Shown here in pieces: positions 269 to 9,099 of a DNA stretch of 50,413 nt. Made by a program: the position numbers and the translations under genes. How positions within the stretch are numbered: position 1 is the first letter of the stretch; each line of letters opens with the position of its first letter. Origin of the DNA: a virus (Duplodnaviria; Caudoviricetes); IMG/VR virus record IMGVR_UViG_3300014501_001247, positions 1 through 50,413 of that record, one strand, 5' to 3'. Below the pieces are notes generated by a model. That model made no database searches, had not been told where the DNA came from, and saw only the letters and a list, made by a program, of their open reading frames with translations.

Positions 269-685
269 ATGCCCTACGCGGAATACACGAAGGTCCCGGT
301 CGAGAAGACCAAGACCGACATCGAACAGATCCTGACCCGCTACGGCGCCGACCGCTTCGCCTATTTCGTCGAGACCGGAAAGGCCATCATCGTCTTTGAG
401 GCGCACGAGCGACGCCTGCGGTTCGATCTGCCGCTGCAGGCCGGCGAGAAGGAAAAGGACCAGCGCCGGCGCCGCGAACAATGGCGGGCGCTCCTGCTCT
501 GCATCAAGGCCAAGCTCGAAAGTGTGGCGAGCAGCATCGAGACGTTCGAAGAAGCGTTCCTGGCCCACGTCGTGCTGCCGGACGGACAGACCGTCCACCA
601 GCATGTGTCTCCGCGCCTCGACCAGATCGCCAAGGGCGGTGAGATGCAGGCGCTGCTGCCGGGGCCAAAGCCTGGCGCTCCTTAA
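269..685 (+). CDS. Phage hypothetical protein (138 aa)
   Basis: GGGAGAGGG RBS; typical codon bias; WRALLLCIKAKLE..FEEAFLAH motif resembles conserved phage early proteins. Confidence 0.8.
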   Translation: MPYAEYTKVPVEKTKTDIEQILTRYGADRFAYFVETGKAIIVFEAHERRLRFDLPLQAGEKEKDQRRRREQWRALLLCIKAKLESVASSIETFEEAFLAHVVLPDGQTVHQHVSPRLDQIAKGGEMQALLPGPKPGAP

Positions 686-750
686 CCCGCCGCGGACCCC
701 GGTCAGGAACCATTAACCAGCCCCTGCGATTGTCGCCGCGGGAGACCGCG

Positions 751-1086
751 ATGGCGAAAAAACCTGACAACGAGGCGCTTTGCCGGGAGTTGCTCACGCT
801 GCGCAGGAAGCACGCGGAGGCGTTCGCCCGCGAGACCGAGATCAAGGCGGCGCTCAAGACCGGCGCCGCGGAGAACTTCCAGATCTCCATTCCCGGCCTC
901 GGCGTGGTCAAGGTCTCGGCACCGAAGCCCAAAAGCTGCACCGGCGTCTCGCCGGAGATCGTGGTCGACGCCTTCCTGCGGCTCGACGACCGCGAGCGCA
1001 AGAAACTGATCAAGCTCGGCCTCGTCATCGAGGCCGAGCAGTGGAAGGGCGCCTACTACGGTTCGGTCACCGCCGAGCTGTTCTAA
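751..1086 (+). CDS. Phage hypothetical protein (111 aa)
   Basis: GGGAG RBS before ATG 751; strong GC3 codon bias. Confidence 0.75.
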   Translation: MAKKPDNEALCRELLTLRRKHAEAFARETEIKAALKTGAAENFQISIPGLGVVKVSAPKPKSCTGVSPEIVVDAFLRLDDRERKKLIKLGLVIEAEQWKGAYYGSVTAELF

Positions 1087-1095
1087 GGAGAGAAC

Positions 1096-1386
1096 ATGAT
1101 CAAGCCCACCCCTGGCCGCGTCGTCTGGTTCACGCCGCATCCGGGCGATCCGTGCTTCTCAAGTGAGTTCAAGCCGCCCTTCGCCGCCCACGTCGCCTAC
1201 GTTCACGACGACCGCCACGTCAACCTGATGGTGATCAGCCCGGAGGGCCACGCGCTGCAGAAGCGCTGGGTCCCACTCATCCAGGAGGGCGAGGCGCTCC
1301 CGACAAGCGAGTATTGCGAGTGGATGCCCTACCAGAAGGGCCAGGCGGCCAAGACCGAGGCGCTGGAGAAGAAGGTCGGCGCATGA
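1096..1386 (+). CDS. Conserved small phage protein (MIKPTPGRVVWF type)
   Basis: TAAGGAG RBS; PTPGRVVWF...AAHVAYVH...VNLMV...WMPYQ pattern seen in phage small proteins. Confidence 0.8.
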   Translation: MIKPTPGRVVWFTPHPGDPCFSSEFKPPFAAHVAYVHDDRHVNLMVISPEGHALQKRWVPLIQEGEALPTSEYCEWMPYQKGQAAKTEALEKKVGA

Positions 1387-1727
1387 GCAGCCTGCAGGTC
1401 ACCGATCGCGACGCGGCGGCCGTCGCCAAGGCACCCCGCGTGTCGCTCGGCGACATTGAAGCCGCGATCGGCGGCATCTACTACACCAGCGCGCTGCAAG
1501 CGGTGATCGACGTGGGCGTGTCGCATGAGCACACCGGCCCGCTCGGCCTGCTGACGATCTGCATCGTCGTCATGCGCAATGGCTTCACCGTCATCGGCAA
1601 GTCGGCGCCGGCCTCGCCGGAGAATTTCGACGCCGCGCTCGGGCGCAAGTTCGCCTACGAGGACGCCGTGCGCCAGCTCTGGCCGCTGATGGGCTTCGCG
1701 CTGCGCGATCGCCTGGCGGCGGCTTAG
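1383..1727 (+). CDS. Phage Gp49/Gp66 family protein (N4 gp49/Sf6 gp66), candidate nucleotide-signal sponge
   Basis: ATGA overlap with the upstream gene; signature APRVS..DIE...LTICIVVMRNGFTVIGKSAPASPENFDAALGRKFAYEDAVRQLWPLMG. Confidence 0.85.
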   Translation: MSSLQVTDRDAAAVAKAPRVSLGDIEAAIGGIYYTSALQAVIDVGVSHEHTGPLGLLTICIVVMRNGFTVIGKSAPASPENFDAALGRKFAYEDAVRQLWPLMGFALRDRLAAA

Positions 1728-2731
1728 AGCTCGGCGCTGGCAACGAAGCTCACGCCGCCGGGATACCTGCCGCCCCACGGGTCCACGATAAACGGGTTTG
1801 CCTTCTTGAGCGCGGCCCGCTCGTCGGTTTCGAGCGCGATCTTCTGCGCCAGCATGACGTCGCCGGCGGCGAGGTAGCCCTCCGGCGCGAAGCACCAGCC
1901 CTGGACGGCTCGACCTTTGCCATCGAGCTCGTCGACGTTCATCGCCTCGCCGTGGCGGATGCGATAGCGCTTGCCGCTCGCCGAGCCGATCACCTCGAAA
2001 GATCGGTCATGCCGATACTGATCGCGCTGCGCCGGCGTGAGCCACTCATTGAGCAGCGTCATCGCCTTGGTCTCGGCGCCGGCTCGCTGGCCGCCGTACA
2101 TAGCGCCCAACAGGTCGGCGTCGAGCCAGGCGCGGAACTCACGAATGTAATCTCCCGGGATCACGTCGAGACCGCCCGGCGGTTGGAGCAACTCAACCGT
2201 GGTGCGCGGCGCCTGGGCGGCCCAGTCGGTGCTGTAGAAACGCCCAGGCGCCTCGACGAAAGTGACGCCACCTGGCAGCAGCGAAAACGCCGCCTCGTCG
2301 AAGGCGCCGTGATCCACCACGAGCATCGGAGCTTCGTGGTAGCGGCGTCGCATCTGCTCCTCGATCAGATCCAGTTCGCGCGCGGCCTGCACGATGACGG
2401 CGCAGTCAGTGGACGTCTGCGCCAGGCGCTGCACGCGCTCGCGCAGCGGGCGCAAGCGCTCCTCGATCTGGTGTTCTTCGTAGAGCCGCCAGAAGATCCG
2501 CTCGCACTCTCGGCAGAAGTAATCAGCGCCGCGGCGGTCCAGGTTGTAGAACGGGCCAAGCGGAAGCGCCCATCGCCAATCCCGGCCATCGGCGAATGTC
2601 GCGACCGCGCGCGGGCTGTCGCAGTACGGCCCGGTCTCCAGGCGAAACTCGACCAGCGGCACAAGTCGCTCGCCCTGCCGCTGCAGCACCGCCTGAAGAT
2701 ACTCGCGCGCCTGCGCGAGCAGCTCCTCCAT
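1724..2731 (-). CDS. Hypothetical protein (335 aa), partner of the GG-ending protein; C-terminal domain with a WCFAP cysteine
   Basis: Start (MEELLAQ) is coupled to the upstream stop by TGATG at 2731; C-terminal ...GWCFAPEGYLAAGDVMLAQKIALETDERAALKKAN. Confidence 0.8.
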   Translation of the reverse strand: MEELLAQAREYLQAVLQRQGERLVPLVEFRLETGPYCDSPRAVATFADGRDWRWALPLGPFYNLDRRGADYFCRECERIFWRLYEEHQIEERLRPLRERVQRLAQTSTDCAVIVQAARELDLIEEQMRRRYHEAPMLVVDHGAFDEAAFSLLPGGVTFVEAPGRFYSTDWAAQAPRTTVELLQPPGGLDVIPGDYIREFRAWLDADLLGAMYGGQRAGAETKAMTLLNEWLTPAQRDQYRHDRSFEVIGSASGKRYRIRHGEAMNVDELDGKGRAVQGWCFAPEGYLAAGDVMLAQKIALETDERAALKKANPFIVDPWGGRYPGGVSFVASAEL

Positions 2732-2952
2732 CAGCCGCCCACGAGCCGCGGGAAGAACAGCGTCTCCTGCGCTGTGGCGTCGAACTTGCGCGCGAGCTTG
2801 GAGCTGCCATCGGGCTGCCGCGTCGCCGCGGTGAAGCCTAAGCCGGTGAGCTCGCGGAAACGGTCTTCGGCGGCCTTGAGCGCCACCTGGTCGCCGGCGT
2901 CGAAGGCATGCCGGGTGTCGCCGGACGTGTCCATCACGATCTGGGTCGCCAT
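2731..2952 (-). CDS. Small protein (73 aa) with C-terminal di-glycine (-FFPRLVGG), candidate ubiquitin-like modifier
   Basis: GGAGGA RBS 4 nt before ATG 2952; ORF ends LVGG-stop; translationally coupled to the next gene. Confidence 0.8.
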   Translation of the reverse strand: MATQIVMDTSGDTRHAFDAGDQVALKAAEDRFRELTGLGFTAATRQPDGSSKLARKFDATAQETLFFPRLVGG

Positions 2953-2978
2953 TCTTTCCTCCTCCACGAAGCATGCCG

Positions 2979-2987
2979 ATCATACCA
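2979..2987 (-). promoter_or_regulatory. Putative extended -10 promoter (TGGTATGAT) for the 2952/2731 gene pair
   Basis: The minus strand reads TG-G-TATGAT about 27 nt upstream of ATG 2952, just downstream of the late terminator; no clear -35. Confidence 0.5.
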
Positions 2988-2994
2988 CAAACGC

Positions 2995-3042
2995 AAAAAG
3001 CCCGCGCCGCCGGCACCCCGTTTCCGGGGGCCGACGGCGCGG
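2995..3042 (-). terminator. Rho-independent terminator at the end of the late/lysis operon
   Basis: Imperfect GC stem 3002-3019/3026-3042 followed by TTTTT on the minus strand. Confidence 0.75.
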
Positions 3043-3243: not shown

Positions 3244-3489
3244 TTAGCCGTGAAACAGCTTGACGCCGAGGGCGCCGAAAAGGGCCCCGAGGGTAGCGCC
3301 GGCCCCGGAATACCAGTGCTGGCGGTTCTCGACCTTGCCGACGCGGGTGTCGAGCGCGGTGGTGCGCTCGTCCTGCTTGGCCATCTGCTTGATGAAGGTG
3401 TCGATCGAGCCCTCGAGGCGGCCGAGCGCGCGGCTGATGTCCTGCAGCTGCTGCTGCATCTGGTTGATGGTGTTGGTCGGCGCGGTCAT
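3244..3489 (-). CDS. Coiled-coil protein with C-terminal membrane anchor (XhlA/holin-like)
   Basis: Heptad N-terminal part, hydrophobic C-terminus (GAGATLGALFGALGV), located in the lysis cassette. Confidence 0.7.
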   Translation of the reverse strand: MTAPTNTINQMQQQLQDISRALGRLEGSIDTFIKQMAKQDERTTALDTRVGKVENRQHWYSGAGATLGALFGALGVKLFHG

Positions 3490-3815
3490 GGCGCACCCGC
3501 TTTCTTCGGCGCGGCGTAGGCCGCCTTGACGTTGCCGATGCAGGCGCGGCCGATGTCGATCTCGCCGGCGGCCTTGATCAGCGCGACGTCGTCGCGCGCG
3601 AACGCGATGCGCGCGTCGGTCTTGGCCGTCACCGGCGGCAGCGTCACCGGAGCGAGCGCGCGCGCGCAGGTGTCGAGCGCGCCGAGATCGACCGCCAGCG
3701 GCGGCGCCCCCGGCTTAGTGGCCGGTGCGAGCGCGCAGCTGCAGAACAGCGGCGCCGACAGTGCAAGAAGGAGCGCCCGACTTGGAGCCCTTCGCGGCCG
3801 CGAGTTGTTTCTCAT
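3486..3815 (-). CDS. Outer-membrane spanin lipoprotein (Rz1-like)
   Basis: Basic N-terminus, hydrophobic stretch and lipobox-like LFCSC; Pro-rich; overlaps the 3' end of the i-spanin gene in another frame. Confidence 0.7.
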   Translation of the reverse strand: MRNNSRPRRAPSRALLLALSAPLFCSCALAPATKPGAPPLAVDLGALDTCARALAPVTLPPVTAKTDARIAFARDDVALIKAAGEIDIGRACIGNVKAAYAAPKKAGAP

Positions 3816-4182
3816 AGGCTGCCACCTGCTGCTTGAGGTCGTCGGATTGTTTCGACAGCGACGCGATCTGCGGGTTGTATTCGGCCCGCACCGATGCCCG
3901 GACGGCTTGGTTGTGCGCGTCGGCGATCACCTGCGCGGCCTTGTCGGCCTTGTCCCATTGGGCCTGTACATCGGCCCGCCCGGTATGGTCGCCGTAGACG
4001 ACGCCGCCGAAGGCGGCCAGGACCGTGATGACGCCGGCGATCGCGATCGGGCGCGCTACGGCCACGAACCAGCCCAGCGCAACGAGCACCGCGATAGCGC
4101 CGAGCGAAAAGCTGCCCCACTCGGTCACGCGGGCAATCTGGTGCAGCGCGTCGAAGAAGCTGCCGCCGAGCGGATCAAACAT
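3715..4182 (-). CDS. Inner-membrane spanin (Rz-like)
   Basis: N-terminal transmembrane helices followed by a coiled coil (VQAQWDKA...LKQQV); directly downstream of the endolysin. Confidence 0.7.
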   Translation of the reverse strand: MFDPLGGSFFDALHQIARVTEWGSFSLGAIAVLVALGWFVAVARPIAIAGVITVLAAFGGVVYGDHTGRADVQAQWDKADKAAQVIADAHNQAVRASVRAEYNPQIASLSKQSDDLKQQVAAYEKQLAAAKGSKSGAPSCTVGAAVLQLRARTGH

Positions 4183-5038
4183 GGTCGTTCTCGAGCTTGG
4201 CGCGGCGGTCGAGGAAGACGAAGACGCCGAGCACCGCGATCGCCGCCGCGATCGCGATGCCGATCGCCGGCGCGTGGGCGATGACCGCGAGATGGTCGAG
4301 CACGCCGAGCTCGAGCAGGTTCTGCTTCGCGGCCTTGAGCGGCTCGGCGGCGTCGTTGATCTGCTGCAGCGTCGTGAACACGCCGCCGGCGCCGGTGGTG
4401 AGACCGGCGATCGCCTGCTTGGAGGCGAGGATGCCCTTCGGCGGCGCGTTGCGCTCGGCCTTGGGCGAGAAGATCGCGTCGGGCTGCGCCGGCGGCGGCC
4501 CTTCGGCCTCGTCCGGCGTATTGAACCAGGCGATCTCGGCGGCGCGCCGGTGCACCAGTCCCTCCATGTGCTCGCCGCGCGAGGAGGTGTATTGGAGCAG
4601 CTTCGCTGGCACGGCGCGGCTGTTGCCGGCGTTGATCAGTCGGATGGCGGCGAGCGAGGCGGCCGGGCAGTTGAACCAGGTGTCGACCAGCGCGTCGAAC
4701 TGATGCTGGGTGACCGCGACCTTGAGCGCGCGATCGACGGCGCGTTCGCACGGCGCGATGTCGTCGTCGAAGATCTGATCGGCCTGCTCGCGCGTGATGC
4801 GCAGGCCCTTCACGATATGTGGGTAAACGCCCGACACCTTCATCGATCCGGCGGCGTCGGTGTGCCCAAAACCGATGGTGAGCGTGCCGCGCACGGCGCC
4901 GCCGTCCCATTCGGGATATTGCAGCTTGCCGTCGATGTGCCGCTTGCCGACCTTGTCGTCGTAGACGTAGAGGACGCACTCCTCCCACGGCTCGGTCAGT
5001 TTGGCGCGCGCTTGCGCGCTCATGCGCATGTCGCTCAT
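4175..5038 (-). CDS. Endolysin, GH24 phage-lysozyme-like, with C-terminal membrane helices
   Basis: PWEECVLYVYDD...TIGFGHT, ITREQA, TQHQFDALV..FN and GLVHRRAAE lysozyme motifs; hydrophobic C-terminal tail. Confidence 0.9.
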   Translation of the reverse strand: MSDMRMSAQARAKLTEPWEECVLYVYDDKVGKRHIDGKLQYPEWDGGAVRGTLTIGFGHTDAAGSMKVSGVYPHIVKGLRITREQADQIFDDDIAPCERAVDRALKVAVTQHQFDALVDTWFNCPAASLAAIRLINAGNSRAVPAKLLQYTSSRGEHMEGLVHRRAAEIAWFNTPDEAEGPPPAQPDAIFSPKAERNAPPKGILASKQAIAGLTTGAGGVFTTLQQINDAAEPLKAAKQNLLELGVLDHLAVIAHAPAIGIAIAAAIAVLGVFVFLDRRAKLENDHV

Positions 5039-5223
5039 TTGAGCTTCTCCTCGGCCTCGGCGACGCTCTCGCGCACCGCCTGGATCACGCCGGACTCGAG
5101 CACGATCAGCGCGCGAGCGTTGCCGTAGCCCTGGTCGGCGTGGGCCGGCCGGATCGCCACCACGTCGTCGGGCTTGATCGGCACGGTCTCGCCGTTCGGC
5201 TCGGTGAAGTGGACGAACCTCAC
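5035..5223 (-). CDS. Small FlbD-like protein (62 aa)
   Basis: GTGA/ATGA overlaps at both ends; FTEPNG.....PDDVVAI....IVLESG...AVRESVAE pattern resembles the FlbD family. Confidence 0.6.
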   Translation of the reverse strand: MRFVHFTEPNGETVPIKPDDVVAIRPAHADQGYGNARALIVLESGVIQAVRESVAEAEEKLK

Positions 5224-5495
5224 GCTGCGCCCGGCGCCGCGGCGCTGGCGGCGACAGTGGTGGCGGCGCTGGGCGCAGGCGCAGCGACGGTCGTGCTGCC
5301 ACCCTTCAGGTGCTTGACGTCGGCCTCGACCGCCTTGAGCCGGGTGTCGAGCGCGGCGAGGTCGGCCTTGCCGGCGTTCCACCAGGCTTTCAGCTTGGCG
5401 ACGCCCCAGCTCCAGCCCTTCTTCGCCCACAGCACGCCGAACCAGACGACGCCAACAAAAATGGCGCCCTCGGCGCCATAGAGCAGATGATCCAT
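5220..5495 (-). CDS. Small membrane protein (holin/antiholin candidate)
   Basis: AAAGG RBS; N-terminal TM (AIFVGVVWFGVLW) followed by a coiled coil; upstream of the endolysin. Confidence 0.65.
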   Translation of the reverse strand: MDHLLYGAEGAIFVGVVWFGVLWAKKGWSWGVAKLKAWWNAGKADLAALDTRLKAVEADVKHLKGGSTTVAAPAPSAATTVAASAAAPGAA

Positions 5496-5946: not shown

Positions 5947-6339
5947 CTAGCTGAGGTCGGTTATGACCGGGGCGAGCTGGGCGATCATGCCGCCGGTGAT
6001 CTTCGGGTTGGCCTCGAGCGACAGGTTGCTGGTGGTGAGCATCCGCAGCTCGAACTCGCCGGCCTCGAGCTTGCGGGCCTCGGCGTCGGCGTCCATCGCG
6101 TCGGCCTGGATCTCGGCGTCGGTGCGCTGCGCGCGGCCCTTGTCGTCGCGATTGTCCTTGTAGAGCTGCGCGACGGAGCGAGTGCGGGCGCGCTCGTAGG
6201 CCTCGGCGTGCGGGCGCAGCAGGTTGACGTTGATGGCAATCGCCAGCCGCACCGTGCCGGCAAGCTTCACGTCCGGCACGTTCTCGACGGCGTTGAGCCC
6301 GAGCACCAGGTTGTGCAGGGCGCCGATGGTCAGCTTCAT
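5947..6339 (-). CDS. Hypothetical protein downstream of the tail fibre (possible chaperone)
   Basis: GAGGGGAG RBS; good codon bias; helical. Confidence 0.7.
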   Translation of the reverse strand: MKLTIGALHNLVLGLNAVENVPDVKLAGTVRLAIAINVNLLRPHAEAYERARTRSVAQLYKDNRDDKGRAQRTDAEIQADAMDADAEARKLEAGEFELRMLTTSNLSLEANPKITGGMIAQLAPVITDLS

Positions 6340-6411
6340 GGCCGAAAACTCCCCTCGAAGTGGCTAGGCGGCGATTGTCGCCGCCCGCGGCAACCGAACG
6401 GTTAACGGGCC

Positions 6412-9099
6412 TCACCAGACCGGGAAAGAGCGGGTGGTGCCGTTATCGTTGATCGGGATCCATTTGGTGGGCGTCGTCGCGCCGGCAGGGCCGGCGGTGC
6501 CCAATGTCGGCGATGAACTGGCTCCGGTGCTGGTGATCGCCGCGGTCGAGGTGAAGATCGCGGTCGCACCGCCGGGCACGCCGAGCGTGCCACCGAAGTA
6601 GCCGGCGCCGGCAACGCCGAGGCCGCCGGCGATGGTGAGCGCGCCAGTCGTTTTGGACGAGGAGGCGGTGGTGCCGTTGAACGTGGCAACGGTCGTCGTC
6701 TGCCCTACATTGAGGCCGCCGCCGCTGCTGGTCTGCAAGTTCAGCTGAGATGCGTCGATCGAGAGCTGATTGCTATTGCCATAGGTCTGCAGGGTCGCCG
6801 ACGCGCTCGCCGCCGTGGCGTTGTAGAGCCACGAGAACAGGATGCCATGCGAGGAGTCCTGGCCGCAGAACAGATAGCTGTTGCCGGAGGCATTGTTGGC
6901 GAGCACCCCGACGACGCTTGCCAGCGCGCCGCCGACGTTGGGTCCGACATTGAGCTGCGTCGAATTGACCGTGAGCGACGTGGAGTTCCAAGTGCCGAAC
7001 GTGGTGGCGCCGTTGTTGCCGCCGACGAACTTGAAGCCGTCCGTCGTGCCAATTCCGGTCGTGGTCTGGAAGGTGAGCTGGGTGCTGGTCGTGCCCGTGC
7101 CGCCAATGATGAGCGGCGCGGTGATCGAAGTGGTGAAGATCGGCGAGGCGAGCGGGGCGACGCCGGTCAGCGTATTCGACGAAAAGGCAATCGTCTTGTT
7201 GGTCAGCGTCTGCGTCGCTGCATTGGCGGTGAGCGTATCGGTGACATCAGGCAGCGTCAGCACCGCCGAGCCGAGTGCGCCGGTCGGCGGCTCAAGCGTG
7301 ATCGTGCCGCTGGTCGTATTGGCGAAGGCGAGTTCGCCGGCATAGGTGCCGGCAAGACCCAGCGTGAGCACGCCGGGCGTGGTGCTCGAAAGCGCCGCGA
7401 TAGTTAAACCGCCGAGCTGAAAATAAATATTGCCCGCGCTCTGATTGATGCCGCCGTTAAAGCCGTCGAGGATGCCGACGGTCGCGGTTCGCGTATTGGT
7501 CGAATTGGTCAGCGCCCAGGTCGCTGCGGTGCCGCCCCCGGTGACGCTTATTGTGCCTGGAACGACAAGAGTGACACCAGTGGCGCTGACCGTGCCGACA
7601 GCAGCGTTATCGACCAACAACTGCCACGAATTGTTGCCGATCGTTCCAATAGCGCCGAGCGCCGAAGACGAATTGGCCTGCATCCGCATGTCCACGGTGC
7701 CGGACAGCGTCTGCGTGTACACAGGGCCGGAAGCAACTTGCGCAGCGATGCTGGCGCTGGATACGATGGTCGAATTTTCGAGGACCAGCGAATTGTTGCC
7801 GCTGGTCGCGTTCGACGAAATGTACCAAGCGCGATTGGTCCCGCTGCTCCACCAGGAGATCGCGTAATTGTCCGAACCGCCCGAAAGACTGATCGCCTCC
7901 GGCGGACTGTAGATAGTGCTGTCCAGCGCGCCCGTCCGAACAACAATCCCAGACCCGAACCCTCCGAGATTTGTTTGCCCACTGCCGCCATTTTTGGTGA
8001 TGCTGATCGCCGCGCTGACGGAGTATTGCAGGTAATCGGTGCTCGGCTCGCTGTTGCCGGCGTCGATTTGGATGCCAAAATTGTAAGGGCCTCCGGGCAC
8101 TGTCCGAGCATTGAGCGCGTTGACGCCGCTGTATCTGTTGACGGTCGCCAGCTCGATCCCGTAAGCGCCGCTCTCCGCAGTGAGGCTGTGAGCCTCGATA
8201 TATTGCCCCCAAGCGATGTTGCCGACGGCGGTACTGTCGGCAAAGGCGTAGTGCGCTGAGGCTAATGCGGCGTTCCCTGCGGCGTTCAGAGTGCGCGCGA
8301 CACTTTGTATTCCAGCCGCTTCGCCAAAGACACTGACGGCGAAGACCCCGAAGCCGGAGCCTCCGGGAGGGCTGTATGTGCTGGTCCCAGACCAATTTGC
8401 TCCAACTGACAGCCCGGAGCCTCCGGCTGCCATGACCCCGGAATTTCCTGCAATCGTAACGAAGCCGCCAGCCGGATTGAGAGCCAGCTCTGCTGTTGCA
8501 TTACCGAGCCAATTCCGAGCCTGTATCCAAGCGGGATAGGGATTCGTGAGCCCAACCCCGATGACGAGGGAGGTGGCGTTCGTGGTGCCATTGAAGGCGG
8601 CCAGGACGGCGCCGTTGTAGGTGAGGCTGGGATCGCTGTCGGTCCCGGCAACCGCAAGCCTTGCGTAGGTGAGCGTTGGCCCGCCAATGGCGAGGCGCAG
8701 CAAGGAGCTGCTGAAGGTGAGATCCGAGGTGCCGAGGTTGATCGGGTCGGGCGTCGTCAGCGCCCAGATGCCAGAGCCGTTGATGGTGCCAAGGTTGACG
8801 TGGACCTGGACGCCCGAGGCGATCAGCGTGTTGTTCTGAAAATCCGACGACGCCGCCCAGGCGCCGGTCGAGGCGTTATAGATGCCGTTGGTGGTCTGGT
8901 CGGTCTGGTCCTTGACCAGCACGCGATCGCCGGCATTGAGCGCGATGCCGTCGATCGTCTGCAGGCCGATGAGGACGATGTTGGAGCCGGTGGTCGCCGC
9001 CCGCACCGCGGTCTTCCAGGCAAGCCCGGCGTTCGGCGTCGACGACGACGGCGCTTCCGTGGCGTCCACGGTGGCGCCCAGCCGATCAGTGATCGCCAT
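6412..9099 (-). CDS. Tail fibre / receptor-binding protein (895 aa)
   Basis: N-terminal WK.AVRAATT.NI.L.GLQTIDG....GDRVLVKDQT....NGIY anchor domain; G/S/T/A-rich beta repeats; position after the ejection proteins. Confidence 0.88.
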   Translation of the reverse strand: MAITDRLGATVDATEAPSSSTPNAGLAWKTAVRAATTGSNIVLIGLQTIDGIALNAGDRVLVKDQTDQTTNGIYNASTGAWAASSDFQNNTLIASGVQVHVNLGTINGSGIWALTTPDPINLGTSDLTFSSSLLRLAIGGPTLTYARLAVAGTDSDPSLTYNGAVLAAFNGTTNATSLVIGVGLTNPYPAWIQARNWLGNATAELALNPAGGFVTIAGNSGVMAAGGSGLSVGANWSGTSTYSPPGGSGFGVFAVSVFGEAAGIQSVARTLNAAGNAALASAHYAFADSTAVGNIAWGQYIEAHSLTAESGAYGIELATVNRYSGVNALNARTVPGGPYNFGIQIDAGNSEPSTDYLQYSVSAAISITKNGGSGQTNLGGFGSGIVVRTGALDSTIYSPPEAISLSGGSDNYAISWWSSGTNRAWYISSNATSGNNSLVLENSTIVSSASIAAQVASGPVYTQTLSGTVDMRMQANSSSALGAIGTIGNNSWQLLVDNAAVGTVSATGVTLVVPGTISVTGGGTAATWALTNSTNTRTATVGILDGFNGGINQSAGNIYFQLGGLTIAALSSTTPGVLTLGLAGTYAGELAFANTTSGTITLEPPTGALGSAVLTLPDVTDTLTANAATQTLTNKTIAFSSNTLTGVAPLASPIFTTSITAPLIIGGTGTTSTQLTFQTTTGIGTTDGFKFVGGNNGATTFGTWNSTSLTVNSTQLNVGPNVGGALASVVGVLANNASGNSYLFCGQDSSHGILFSWLYNATAASASATLQTYGNSNQLSIDASQLNLQTSSGGGLNVGQTTTVATFNGTTASSSKTTGALTIAGGLGVAGAGYFGGTLGVPGGATAIFTSTAAITSTGASSSPTLGTAGPAGATTPTKWIPINDNGTTRSFPVW

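Follow-up and report, generated by a model that had tools for sequence, protein, structure and literature searches.

We examined a two-gene unit carried by a 50,413-bp provirus record (IMG/VR record IMGVR_UViG_3300014501_001247, positions 1 to 50,413, the whole of which is referred to here as the window) that also holds ordinary phage genes, for example a portal gene and a lysis cassette. The unit lies on the minus strand and encodes a small protein of 73 amino acids (aa) ending in Gly-Gly and, directly downstream, a 335-aa partner, and it is a real, conserved two-gene module native to the chromosomes, plasmids, and prophages of Bradyrhizobium. With high confidence, we regard the two products as a cognate, directly binding pair, in which a ubiquitin-fold protein with a constrained free Gly-Gly end is matched with a new domain bearing a Cys and an Asn. 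The features of the unit are as follows.

2731-2952, minus strand: gene of the 73-aa small protein (P0001), with the ATG at 2952 and the stop codon at 2733-2731, from the translation
1724-2731, minus strand: gene of the 335-aa partner (P0002), with the ATG from 2731 and the stop codon at 1726-1724, from the translation
2333-2731, minus strand: N-terminal domain of the partner (residues 1-133), found typically in the long forms of prophages and of no known family
1784-2098, minus strand: conserved C-terminal domain of the partner (C-domain; residues 212-316, about 100 aa), from the predicted secondary structure, with predicted local distance difference test (pLDDT) values of 93-98
1892-1894, minus strand: codon of Cys280, within the motif GWCFAP that is followed by GDVMLAQKIALE, from the translation
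2958-2965, minus strand: Shine-Dalgarno sequence GGAGGAGG, 5 nucleotides ahead of the ATG, read from the sequence
2979-2987, minus strand: extended -10-like motif TGGTATGAT, a possible promoter of the unit's own, read from the sequence

The gene structure first described from the letters alone (hereafter the sequence-only reading) was confirmed throughout: the small protein reads ...ETLFFPRLVGG and then stop, the TGA of its gene and the ATG of the partner gene share one base (TGATG, position 2731), the 335-aa partner has its Cys codon at 1892-1894, and its stop codon overlaps the TAG (1725-1727) of a converging plus-strand open reading frame (ORF) at 1314-1727. The G+C content at third codon positions (GC3) was 0.92 for the small gene and 0.84 for the partner gene, similar to that of the neighboring phage genes. 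Because both frames have this phage-like GC3 and many homologs, the possibility that they are chance ORFs was ruled out. The sequence-only reading had also given the unit its own extended -10 and a strong ribosome-binding site; the -10-like motif and the Shine-Dalgarno sequence are indeed present, but a sigma-70 consensus scan called no promoter at TGGTATGAT and gave no -35 match, so the promoter is retained here as a motif and not as a finding.

Linkage and distribution of the gene pair

A scan of species-representative genomes yielded 478 loci with a relative of the small protein, of which 80, nearly all from Bradyrhizobium or from alphaproteobacterial metagenome-assembled genomes, were kept and fetched. 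The C-domain was encoded directly downstream of the small gene and on the same strand in 78 of the 80, and the two genes were translationally coupled or separated by short gaps across loci. At the two other loci (L043:5968-6222 and L073:6001-6219), an intact small gene ending in Gly-Gly has no partner domain downstream, and the next gene at L043 encodes a 186-aa protein that may be DJ-1/PfpI-like. In IMG/VR, 11 loci encoding the C-domain were found, and each has a Gly-Gly-ending small gene just upstream (10 detected by tblastn and 1 from its reading frames); tblastn against GenBank phages gave no match to either protein. The adjacency that the sequence-only reading noticed in the window is thus kept in the cellular and the viral loci.

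Broader sampling placed the module mainly in one genus. It was present in 5 of 401 genomes of a phylum-wide sample, and 4 of 151 genomes in a family sample held either gene, these being the same genomes for both genes, with equal copy numbers (1, 1, 1, and 3) and the copies adjacent. In the genus sample, 104 of 151 Bradyrhizobium genomes carried the module, with 1 to 7 copies each, and the small gene was found on thirteen Bradyrhizobium plasmids. Both genes are annotated as "hypothetical protein" only, for example in RefSeq on a Bradyrhizobium plasmid. These results indicated that the unit, first described as a moron, is not phage-specific, since the module is mainly chromosomal or plasmid-borne in Bradyrhizobium and related prophages carry a long, N-extended form of it.

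Part of the chromosomal copies occupied syntenic sites, beside flagellar genes or beside genes for an AMP-ligase and a monooxygenase, and malonate decarboxylase genes formed a further conserved neighborhood. At the flagellar site (L003, L013, L015, L019, and others, at about 6228-6668), the partner opens with a hydrophobic, transmembrane-like segment (MTQQIALAICSFILALLG...), which suggests that this is a membrane-anchored form; the neighboring genes there are fliM/fliL/flgF/flgG-like, as judged by sequence and length and not by a family search.

The two proteins and their predicted complex

The small protein has at least 1198 homologs, with identities of approximately 65 to 73%. Gly-Gly terminates 119 of the 120 listed homologs, stands immediately before the stop codon in 91 of 92 unique small protein-partner pairs, and ends the small protein at all 11 viral loci, down to about 40% identity, where the divergent tails read QLIGG, PFVGG, or QMKGG. 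Among 25 small-protein sequences (alignment A1), Arg69 and Leu70 were invariant; counted from the sequence, these lie 4 and 3 residues ahead of the last Gly, positions that we take to match Arg72 and Leu73 of ubiquitin relative to its terminal Gly. The C-terminus is free, and the R-L-x-G-G end requires no processing. Longer gene calls (n = 47) included no fusion to a known domain: 29 were N-extended and still ended in Gly-Gly, and 18 resembled read-through or frameshift products, which were single-sequence except for P0338, P0342, P0353, and P0360.

In the AlphaFold2 (AF2) model, which had a pLDDT of 82.6, the small protein adopted a beta-grasp topology (bb-a-bbb), with strands 2-8 and 11-17, helix 22-37, and strands 40-45, 51-54, and 63-68, and its last residues (mean pLDDT 40) were predicted to form a flexible tail. 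When this model was searched against the PDB with Foldseek, the classifiable descriptions were all of the ubiquitin superfold (PB1, FERM, RA/RBD, ubiquitin, NEDD8, and UBL). The beta-grasp with a free Gly-Gly end, as the sequence-only reading had envisaged it, was therefore supported by prediction. By sequence, the small protein stood apart, since Pfam, PHROGs, PADLOC, and NCBIfam yielded nothing credible for it or for the partner (the few rows obtained were at chance level, with E values of 0.04-0.19), none of 25 small-protein members matched a curated ubiquitin-like (Ubl) family (ubiquitin, ThiS, MoaD, Prok_Ub, etc.) at E values up to 10, and a profile search of the PDB with the small protein gave no match. 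The ESM Atlas returned unnamed clusters only for both proteins; ThiS was the named cluster nearest to the small protein but, at a score of just 0.76, is no more than a lead.

For the partner, AF2 predicted a confident N-domain (residues 1-133, with block means of 82-98 over residues 1-130), a disordered linker (136-191), and the confident C-domain. Chromosomal partners are mostly about 140 aa long and begin with a putative transmembrane helix or a short stretch rich in Arg, and prophage partners begin with a domain of 130-350 aa; at 9 of the 11 viral loci, the partner lies in an open frame of 283-482 aa, so that the protein can be no longer than this, and the N-termini vary. A helix-then-strands pattern in the N-domain is seemingly common to L083, L084, L086, and L088, as seen by eye from unscored sequences. 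The C-domain consists, in order, of helices, a four-strand meander, Cys280, and the helix GDVMLAQKIALE (strands 244-248, 255-259, 266-269, and 275-280 and helices 289-302 and 304-310 in the AF2 model), with Cys280 ending the fourth strand.

It is this C-domain that defines the partner family. A word search with the partner found 79 homologs, most of which matched only residues ~215-316, at 55-65% identity, and a C-domain profile retrieved 7189 representatives of 50%-identity clusters at an E value of ≤1e-3 and 3961 at ≤1e-10. Across 93 sequences, residues L231, Q235, G249, N265, C280, D291, Q296, K297, L300, and E301 were invariant. Cys280 was present in 93 of 93 C-domains, in 109 of 109 long forms, and in 91 of 92 unique pairs, where the single exception was a gap; Asn265 was kept in all 92 pairs and Asp291 in 91 of them. 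Thus, the Gly-Gly end and the Cys, the two features on which the sequence-only reading was built, both proved to be nearly invariant among homologs.

Searches of the partner against known families and structures gave no name for it. When 41 C-domains were compared with Pfam at E values up to 10, nothing credible was obtained and any one family was matched by at most 3 members, the outcome being the same for 25 small proteins; 0 of 109 long-form partners matched Pfam at an E value of ≤1e-3, and the rows for ten long forms were all weak and below threshold. A profile search of the PDB with the C-domain gave three chance-level matches only (E values of 0.64-1.2), one of which presumably falls partly on an expression tag, and Foldseek with the partner model gave no PDB match at an E value of ≤1e-3. 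In BFVD, Foldseek matched the partner to two unnamed viral proteins, A0A1P8DIP4 and A0A1P8DIR1 (E values of 8.4e-6 and 3.9e-4); their accessions are neighboring, no other structural match to the partner model was obtained, and they may be relatives in an isolated phage, although tblastn against GenBank phages detected none. A reading of the partner as a Cys-His-Asp peptidase, that is, a deubiquitinase-like enzyme, was considered and dropped because there is no invariant His and H260 alternates with Tyr.

The complex between the partner C-domain (residues 205-325) and the small protein was modeled with ESMFold2 in three runs, with each protein supplied with its own alignment. The interaction prediction score from aligned errors (ipSAE) was 0.83, 0.83, and 0.80, versus 0.02 for the best of 3 controls; the mark used for this score was attained by 58 of 80 solved complexes and by 2 of 110 mismatched pairs. 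The runs agreed in at least 92% of contacts, with a partner pLDDT of at least 89. The modeled interface comprised partner residues 215-232, 263-264, 280-288, and 291-312 and small-protein residues 5, 7-12, 41-53, 65, and 67-73. Its best-defined contacts were antiparallel (partner 281-282 with small-protein 70-71, 283 with 67-71, and 284 with 68), and the post-Cys helix GDVMLAQKIALE packed on the sheet face of the beta-grasp. Judged from the hairpin and strand register of the model, Asn265 would neighbor Cys280 on the adjacent strand; along the chain the two are 15 residues apart, which is not the spacing seen in canonical E2 enzymes.

The model supports, but does not prove, direct binding of the small protein to the C-domain. 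The question raised by the sequence-only reading, whether the Gly-Gly end comes near the Cys, found a favorable answer in this controlled model, in which the tail is laid on the Cys-bearing strand. None of the outcomes named in the sequence-only reading as refuting it was observed. Paralogs retain the same interface helix and tail, and this unchanged interface fits a shared chemistry better than it fits insulated cognate pairs.

Candidate mechanisms and the search for activating enzymes

The explanation that we place first, although with less than even confidence, is that the module combines a Ubl with a new Cys acceptor domain, a functional analog of a ubiquitin-conjugating (E2) enzyme, depends for its activation on a housekeeping enzyme of the MoeB/ThiF type, and is directed to its place or target by the variable N-terminus of the partner. 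By this account, the first gene yields a ubiquitin-fold protein with a free R-L-x-G-G C-terminus and the second its cognate partner. In the model, the C-domain of the partner uses the helix GDVMLAQKIALE to clamp the beta-grasp on its sheet face, and the tail runs antiparallel along partner residues 281-284, which would bring the Gly-Gly beside Cys280 and the adjacent-strand Asn265. The C-domain would thus be a Ubl-receiving thiol domain, E2-like by function and not by ancestry. An enzyme of the Ubl-activating (E1) type, drawn from the unlinked housekeeping enzymes of the MoeB/ThiF class, would adenylate the tail of the small protein, after which Cys280 would carry the Ubl as a thioester and hand it on to targets. 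Place or target may be set by the N-terminal part of the partner, which varies and would supply built-in targeting modules such as the membrane anchor of the chromosomal copy beside flagellar genes and the large novel domains in prophages. This explanation is favored because the Gly-Gly end, Cys280, and Asn265 are conserved nearly without exception, because the tail is a ubiquitin-like Arg-Leu-x-Gly-Gly, and because the paralog interfaces are uninsulated.

A number of observations weigh against it. When four ThiF-family ORFs from one host genome (G001) were used in tblastn searches, no E1/ThiF-like gene was detected within 5 to 6 kb of any of the 91 loci or anywhere in the window (50 kb). Nor is the module accompanied by a dedicated E1: of the 151 Bradyrhizobium genomes sampled, 104 have the module, but a Prok-E2_C+ThiF fusion occurs in 11, 10 of them with the module, and another ThiF type in 3. 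No UBC/E2 structure was among the top 50 Foldseek PDB matches of the partner (searched as a full-length model), no C-domain matched the Pfam UQ_con or Prok-E2 families even at E values up to 10, the PDB profile search showed no E2 likeness, and hhalign against 7 Bradyrhizobium Prok-E2_C domains, the single prokaryotic E2 family compared, gave a probability of 0.3%. The partner has no His-Pro-Asn (HPN) motif. On the side of the small protein, the Foldseek scores were modest (E values of 6.6e-3 to 0.1, none at ≤1e-3, and TM-scores of 0.36-0.54). As to the complex, the placement of Gly72-Gly73 at Trp279-Cys280 is extrapolated from the contact register of the model; in an analysis of inter-protein covariation over 92 pairs (effective number of sequences, 38), 1 of the 30 top pairs fell in the interface versus 3.1 expected, and interface columns were not significantly more conserved than the rest (p values of 0.08 and 0.19). 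Finally, the strict 1:1 adjacency of Ubl and partner genes is compatible with a stoichiometric, non-covalent complex as well.

Because Foldseek, Pfam, and hhalign gave no UBC match, the partner was not filed as an E2, and the corresponding proposal of the sequence-only reading was set aside. Its remark that no E1 or JAB gene is visible held more widely, as the neighborhoods of 80 loci contained no gene for an E1, an E2, a JAB protein, or a serine peptidase. Genome G001, which also holds locus L063, carries four ThiF-family genes, all located elsewhere: one is MoeB-like, one is of a second ThiF type, and two encode E2-E1 fusions, which are Prok-E2_B+ThiF (560 aa, L096:574-2253) and Prok-E2_C+ThiF (515 aa, L097:889-2433). 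Since Prok-E2_C+ThiF and the second ThiF type are rare, only a housekeeping adenylase could serve the module generally, and the rarity of these E1 types therefore argues against a canonical cascade, as it does against the decoy role considered in the next section.

The same data can be read as a non-covalent, obligate cognate pair, in which the Gly-Gly tail would be a slim docking peptide in a narrow groove and Cys280 would be structural, the pair acting as a regulator, an adaptor, or a toxin-antitoxin (TA)-like pair with no conjugation. We consider this nearly as likely as the thiol-acceptor explanation because of the 1:1 adjacency, the TA-like lifestyle, and the lack of an E1. The genes occur in equal copy numbers and are translationally coupled or set apart by short intergenic gaps, their presence in 1 to 7 copies per genome on chromosomes, plasmids, and prophages is the way of life of TA systems, no E1, E2, or JAB gene is linked to or co-occurs with them, and a confident complex model requires no chemistry. 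However, docking alone does not usually demand an exact Gly-Gly end as strictly as it is seen here, in 91 of 92 pairs and, despite variation in the remainder of the tail, in viral relatives of about 40% identity. Cys280 and the neighboring Asn265 are invariant. In contrast to typical TA pairs, the paralogs are uninsulated at the interface; neither protein matched a known family of toxins, antitoxins, or defense proteins, and 2 of the 80 loci keep an intact small gene alone.

A beta-grasp protein with a free Gly-Gly end, encoded beside a partner whose conserved site its tail is predicted to enter, is also what a sulfur-carrier pair of the MoaD-MoaE, ThiS-ThiG, or CysO-CysM kind would look like; here, Gly73 would be thiocarboxylated by a housekeeping MoeB/ThiF-type enzyme and sulfur would be delivered at Cys280. 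The E1 of sulfur-carrier systems is typically unlinked and shared (MoeB/MoeZ/TtuC), which speaks for this reading, as does, as a lead at most, the ThiS cluster of the ESM Atlas (0.76 only). Nevertheless, no match of the partner to a MoaE, ThiG, CysM, or rhodanese family was obtained, the conserved neighborhoods hold no cofactor or thio-metabolite genes, and multiple copies, variable N-termini including a membrane anchor, and prophage carriage beside lysis genes would be odd for biosynthesis. We therefore regard a sulfur-carrier role as improbable.

Extended to the biology of the hosts, the thiol-acceptor explanation leads to a wider proposal, namely, that Bradyrhizobium and its temperate phages use a minimal form of protein tagging, with a new thiol domain whose fold differs from that of E2 enzymes, no dedicated E1 but a borrowed adenylase or another means of activation, N-termini serving as targeting modules, and prophage copies redirecting a host-type tag to targets chosen by the phage. 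We hold this to be rather unlikely as a whole. What the analysis shows is the two genes with their linkage and conservation, the modeled fold, and a complex prediction with controls; covalent bond formation, the origin of the E1, the targets, and the benefit to the prophage are inferred.

Prophage setting and comparison with known systems

In the window, the unit is positioned downstream of the lysis cassette, behind a strong terminator, and the surrounding minus-strand features are as follows.

4178-5302, minus strand: endolysin gene, a member of the lysis cassette
3718-4182, minus strand: gene of an Rz-like spanin, a member of the lysis cassette
3247-3489, minus strand: holin-like gene, a member of the lysis cassette
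3043-3000 (hairpin) and 2999-2995 (U-run), minus strand: intrinsic terminator ending the upstream lysis operon, from RNA folding and a terminator scan

The terminator that the sequence-only reading had placed after the late operon (2995-3042) was upheld by a fold of -47.8 kcal/mol with a z-score of -6.6, which was equaled by none of 200 shuffles, and the terminator scan gave an additional match at 3016-3004. Homologs of the converging genes recur in the same place among the 11 viral loci (orf1314 at 5, orf1096 at 6, and orf730 at 5), and one viral locus also has the upstream endolysin and spanin. Because viral loci have these same neighbors, the unit appears as a standing feature of related prophages at one position. 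The four converging plus-strand genes (window positions 269-1727) match PHROGs of unknown function (phrog_17260, 2293, and 322) or have no match. At 375 aa, the endolysin ORF is long, with a lysozyme match confined to residues ~89-279; its first start codon possibly lies too far upstream, or the protein has an extra N-terminal region. No tRNA or tmRNA gene was found across the provirus record (1-50413).

This moron-like position after the lysis cassette, in a terminator-bounded unit, speaks for the decoy against host Ubl defense suggested in the sequence-only reading, whereby the Gly-Gly protein of the prophage would soak up the E1 or E2 of a defense system of the Bil, Bub, or Cap2 type (the last from cyclic oligonucleotide-based antiphage signaling systems [CBASS]) or the partner would trap a host Ubl. 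The presence of Prok-E2_B+ThiF and Prok-E2_C+ThiF fusions in genome G001 would agree with this. The distribution fits it poorly, however, as the module is chiefly chromosomal and partly syntenic (104 of 151 Bradyrhizobium genomes, versus 11 of 151 for Prok-E2_C+ThiF), the phage and host versions have the same Ubl and the same C-domain, and PADLOC gave no match. We consider a decoy role very improbable.

No description of the small protein-partner pair was found in the literature, with supplements outside the scope of the search. Searches with sequence motifs of the two proteins led only to unrelated papers. The papers found on Bradyrhizobium together with ubiquitin-like, di-glycine, or beta-grasp proteins comprised only those on type III secretion system SUMO-protease effectors and general surveys; in the sections covered of one such survey from 2006 (PMC1779556), Bradyrhizobium is named only in species lists. 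What is new here is the partner domain and the lack of a dedicated E1, the Gly-Gly-tailed Ubl itself being of a known kind. About two thirds of the sampled species of Bradyrhizobium, a genus that is very abundant in soil and of importance to agriculture, have the module. Should the Cys indeed carry the tag, the E2 role would have been invented twice, independently, and the second time in a tagging system of very small size. Otherwise, the pair is still widespread and unnamed, with a well-defined predicted interface, and some other reason would have to be found for the invariance of its Gly-Gly. In both cases, the data allow two protein families to be defined.

The small protein is like ubiquitin, NEDD8, ISG15, and the Ubls of Bil, Bub, and CBASS in having a beta-grasp, a flexible tail, and a free C-terminal Gly-Gly after R-L-x, the tail of ubiquitin being R-L-R-G-G. 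It differs from Ubl modifiers in matching no curated Ubl family and in its genus-restricted, multi-copy range. So far, each bacterial Ubl conjugation system on record (Bil, Bub, and CBASS Cap2) carries E1 and E2 genes of its own, according to the relevant parts of two reports (PMC11601596 and PMC11601603), and bacterial Ubl operons are also treated in two further papers (10.1101/2023.09.26.559546 and PMC10097602). The operon described here, in contrast, has no E1, E2, JAB, or serine peptidase gene, and PADLOC gave no match to it.

In its adjacent genes, its small beta-grasp protein ending in Gly-Gly, and a tail that is predicted to enter the conserved site of the partner, the unit resembles the MoaD-MoaE and ThiS pairs, whose adenylating E1 is encoded elsewhere. 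It departs from them in that the partner is not a MoaE, ThiG, or CysM protein, the context is not biosynthetic, the N-termini of the partner vary, and prophages carry it. With type II TA systems, the module shares a small gene placed upstream of, and coupled to, one of ~140 aa and a multi-copy occurrence on chromosomes, plasmids, and prophages, whereas it has no toxin or antitoxin homology (Pfam, PADLOC, and NCBIfam), its upstream protein has a beta-grasp and not a DNA-binding fold, and its paralog interfaces are undiversified.

From E2 (UBC) enzymes, the partner is set apart by the lack of a UBC structure match and of the HPN motif and by the position of its Cys, which ends strand 4 and does not lie in a long loop. 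The likeness to these enzymes and to Prok-E2_A to E resides in the predicted arrangement, that is, an invariant partner Cys that follows a four-strand meander and is itself followed by a helix on the sheet face of the Ubl, with the tail leading to the Cys, and the modeled geometry of the small protein and its partner would thereby resemble the closed state of an E2~Ub conjugate.

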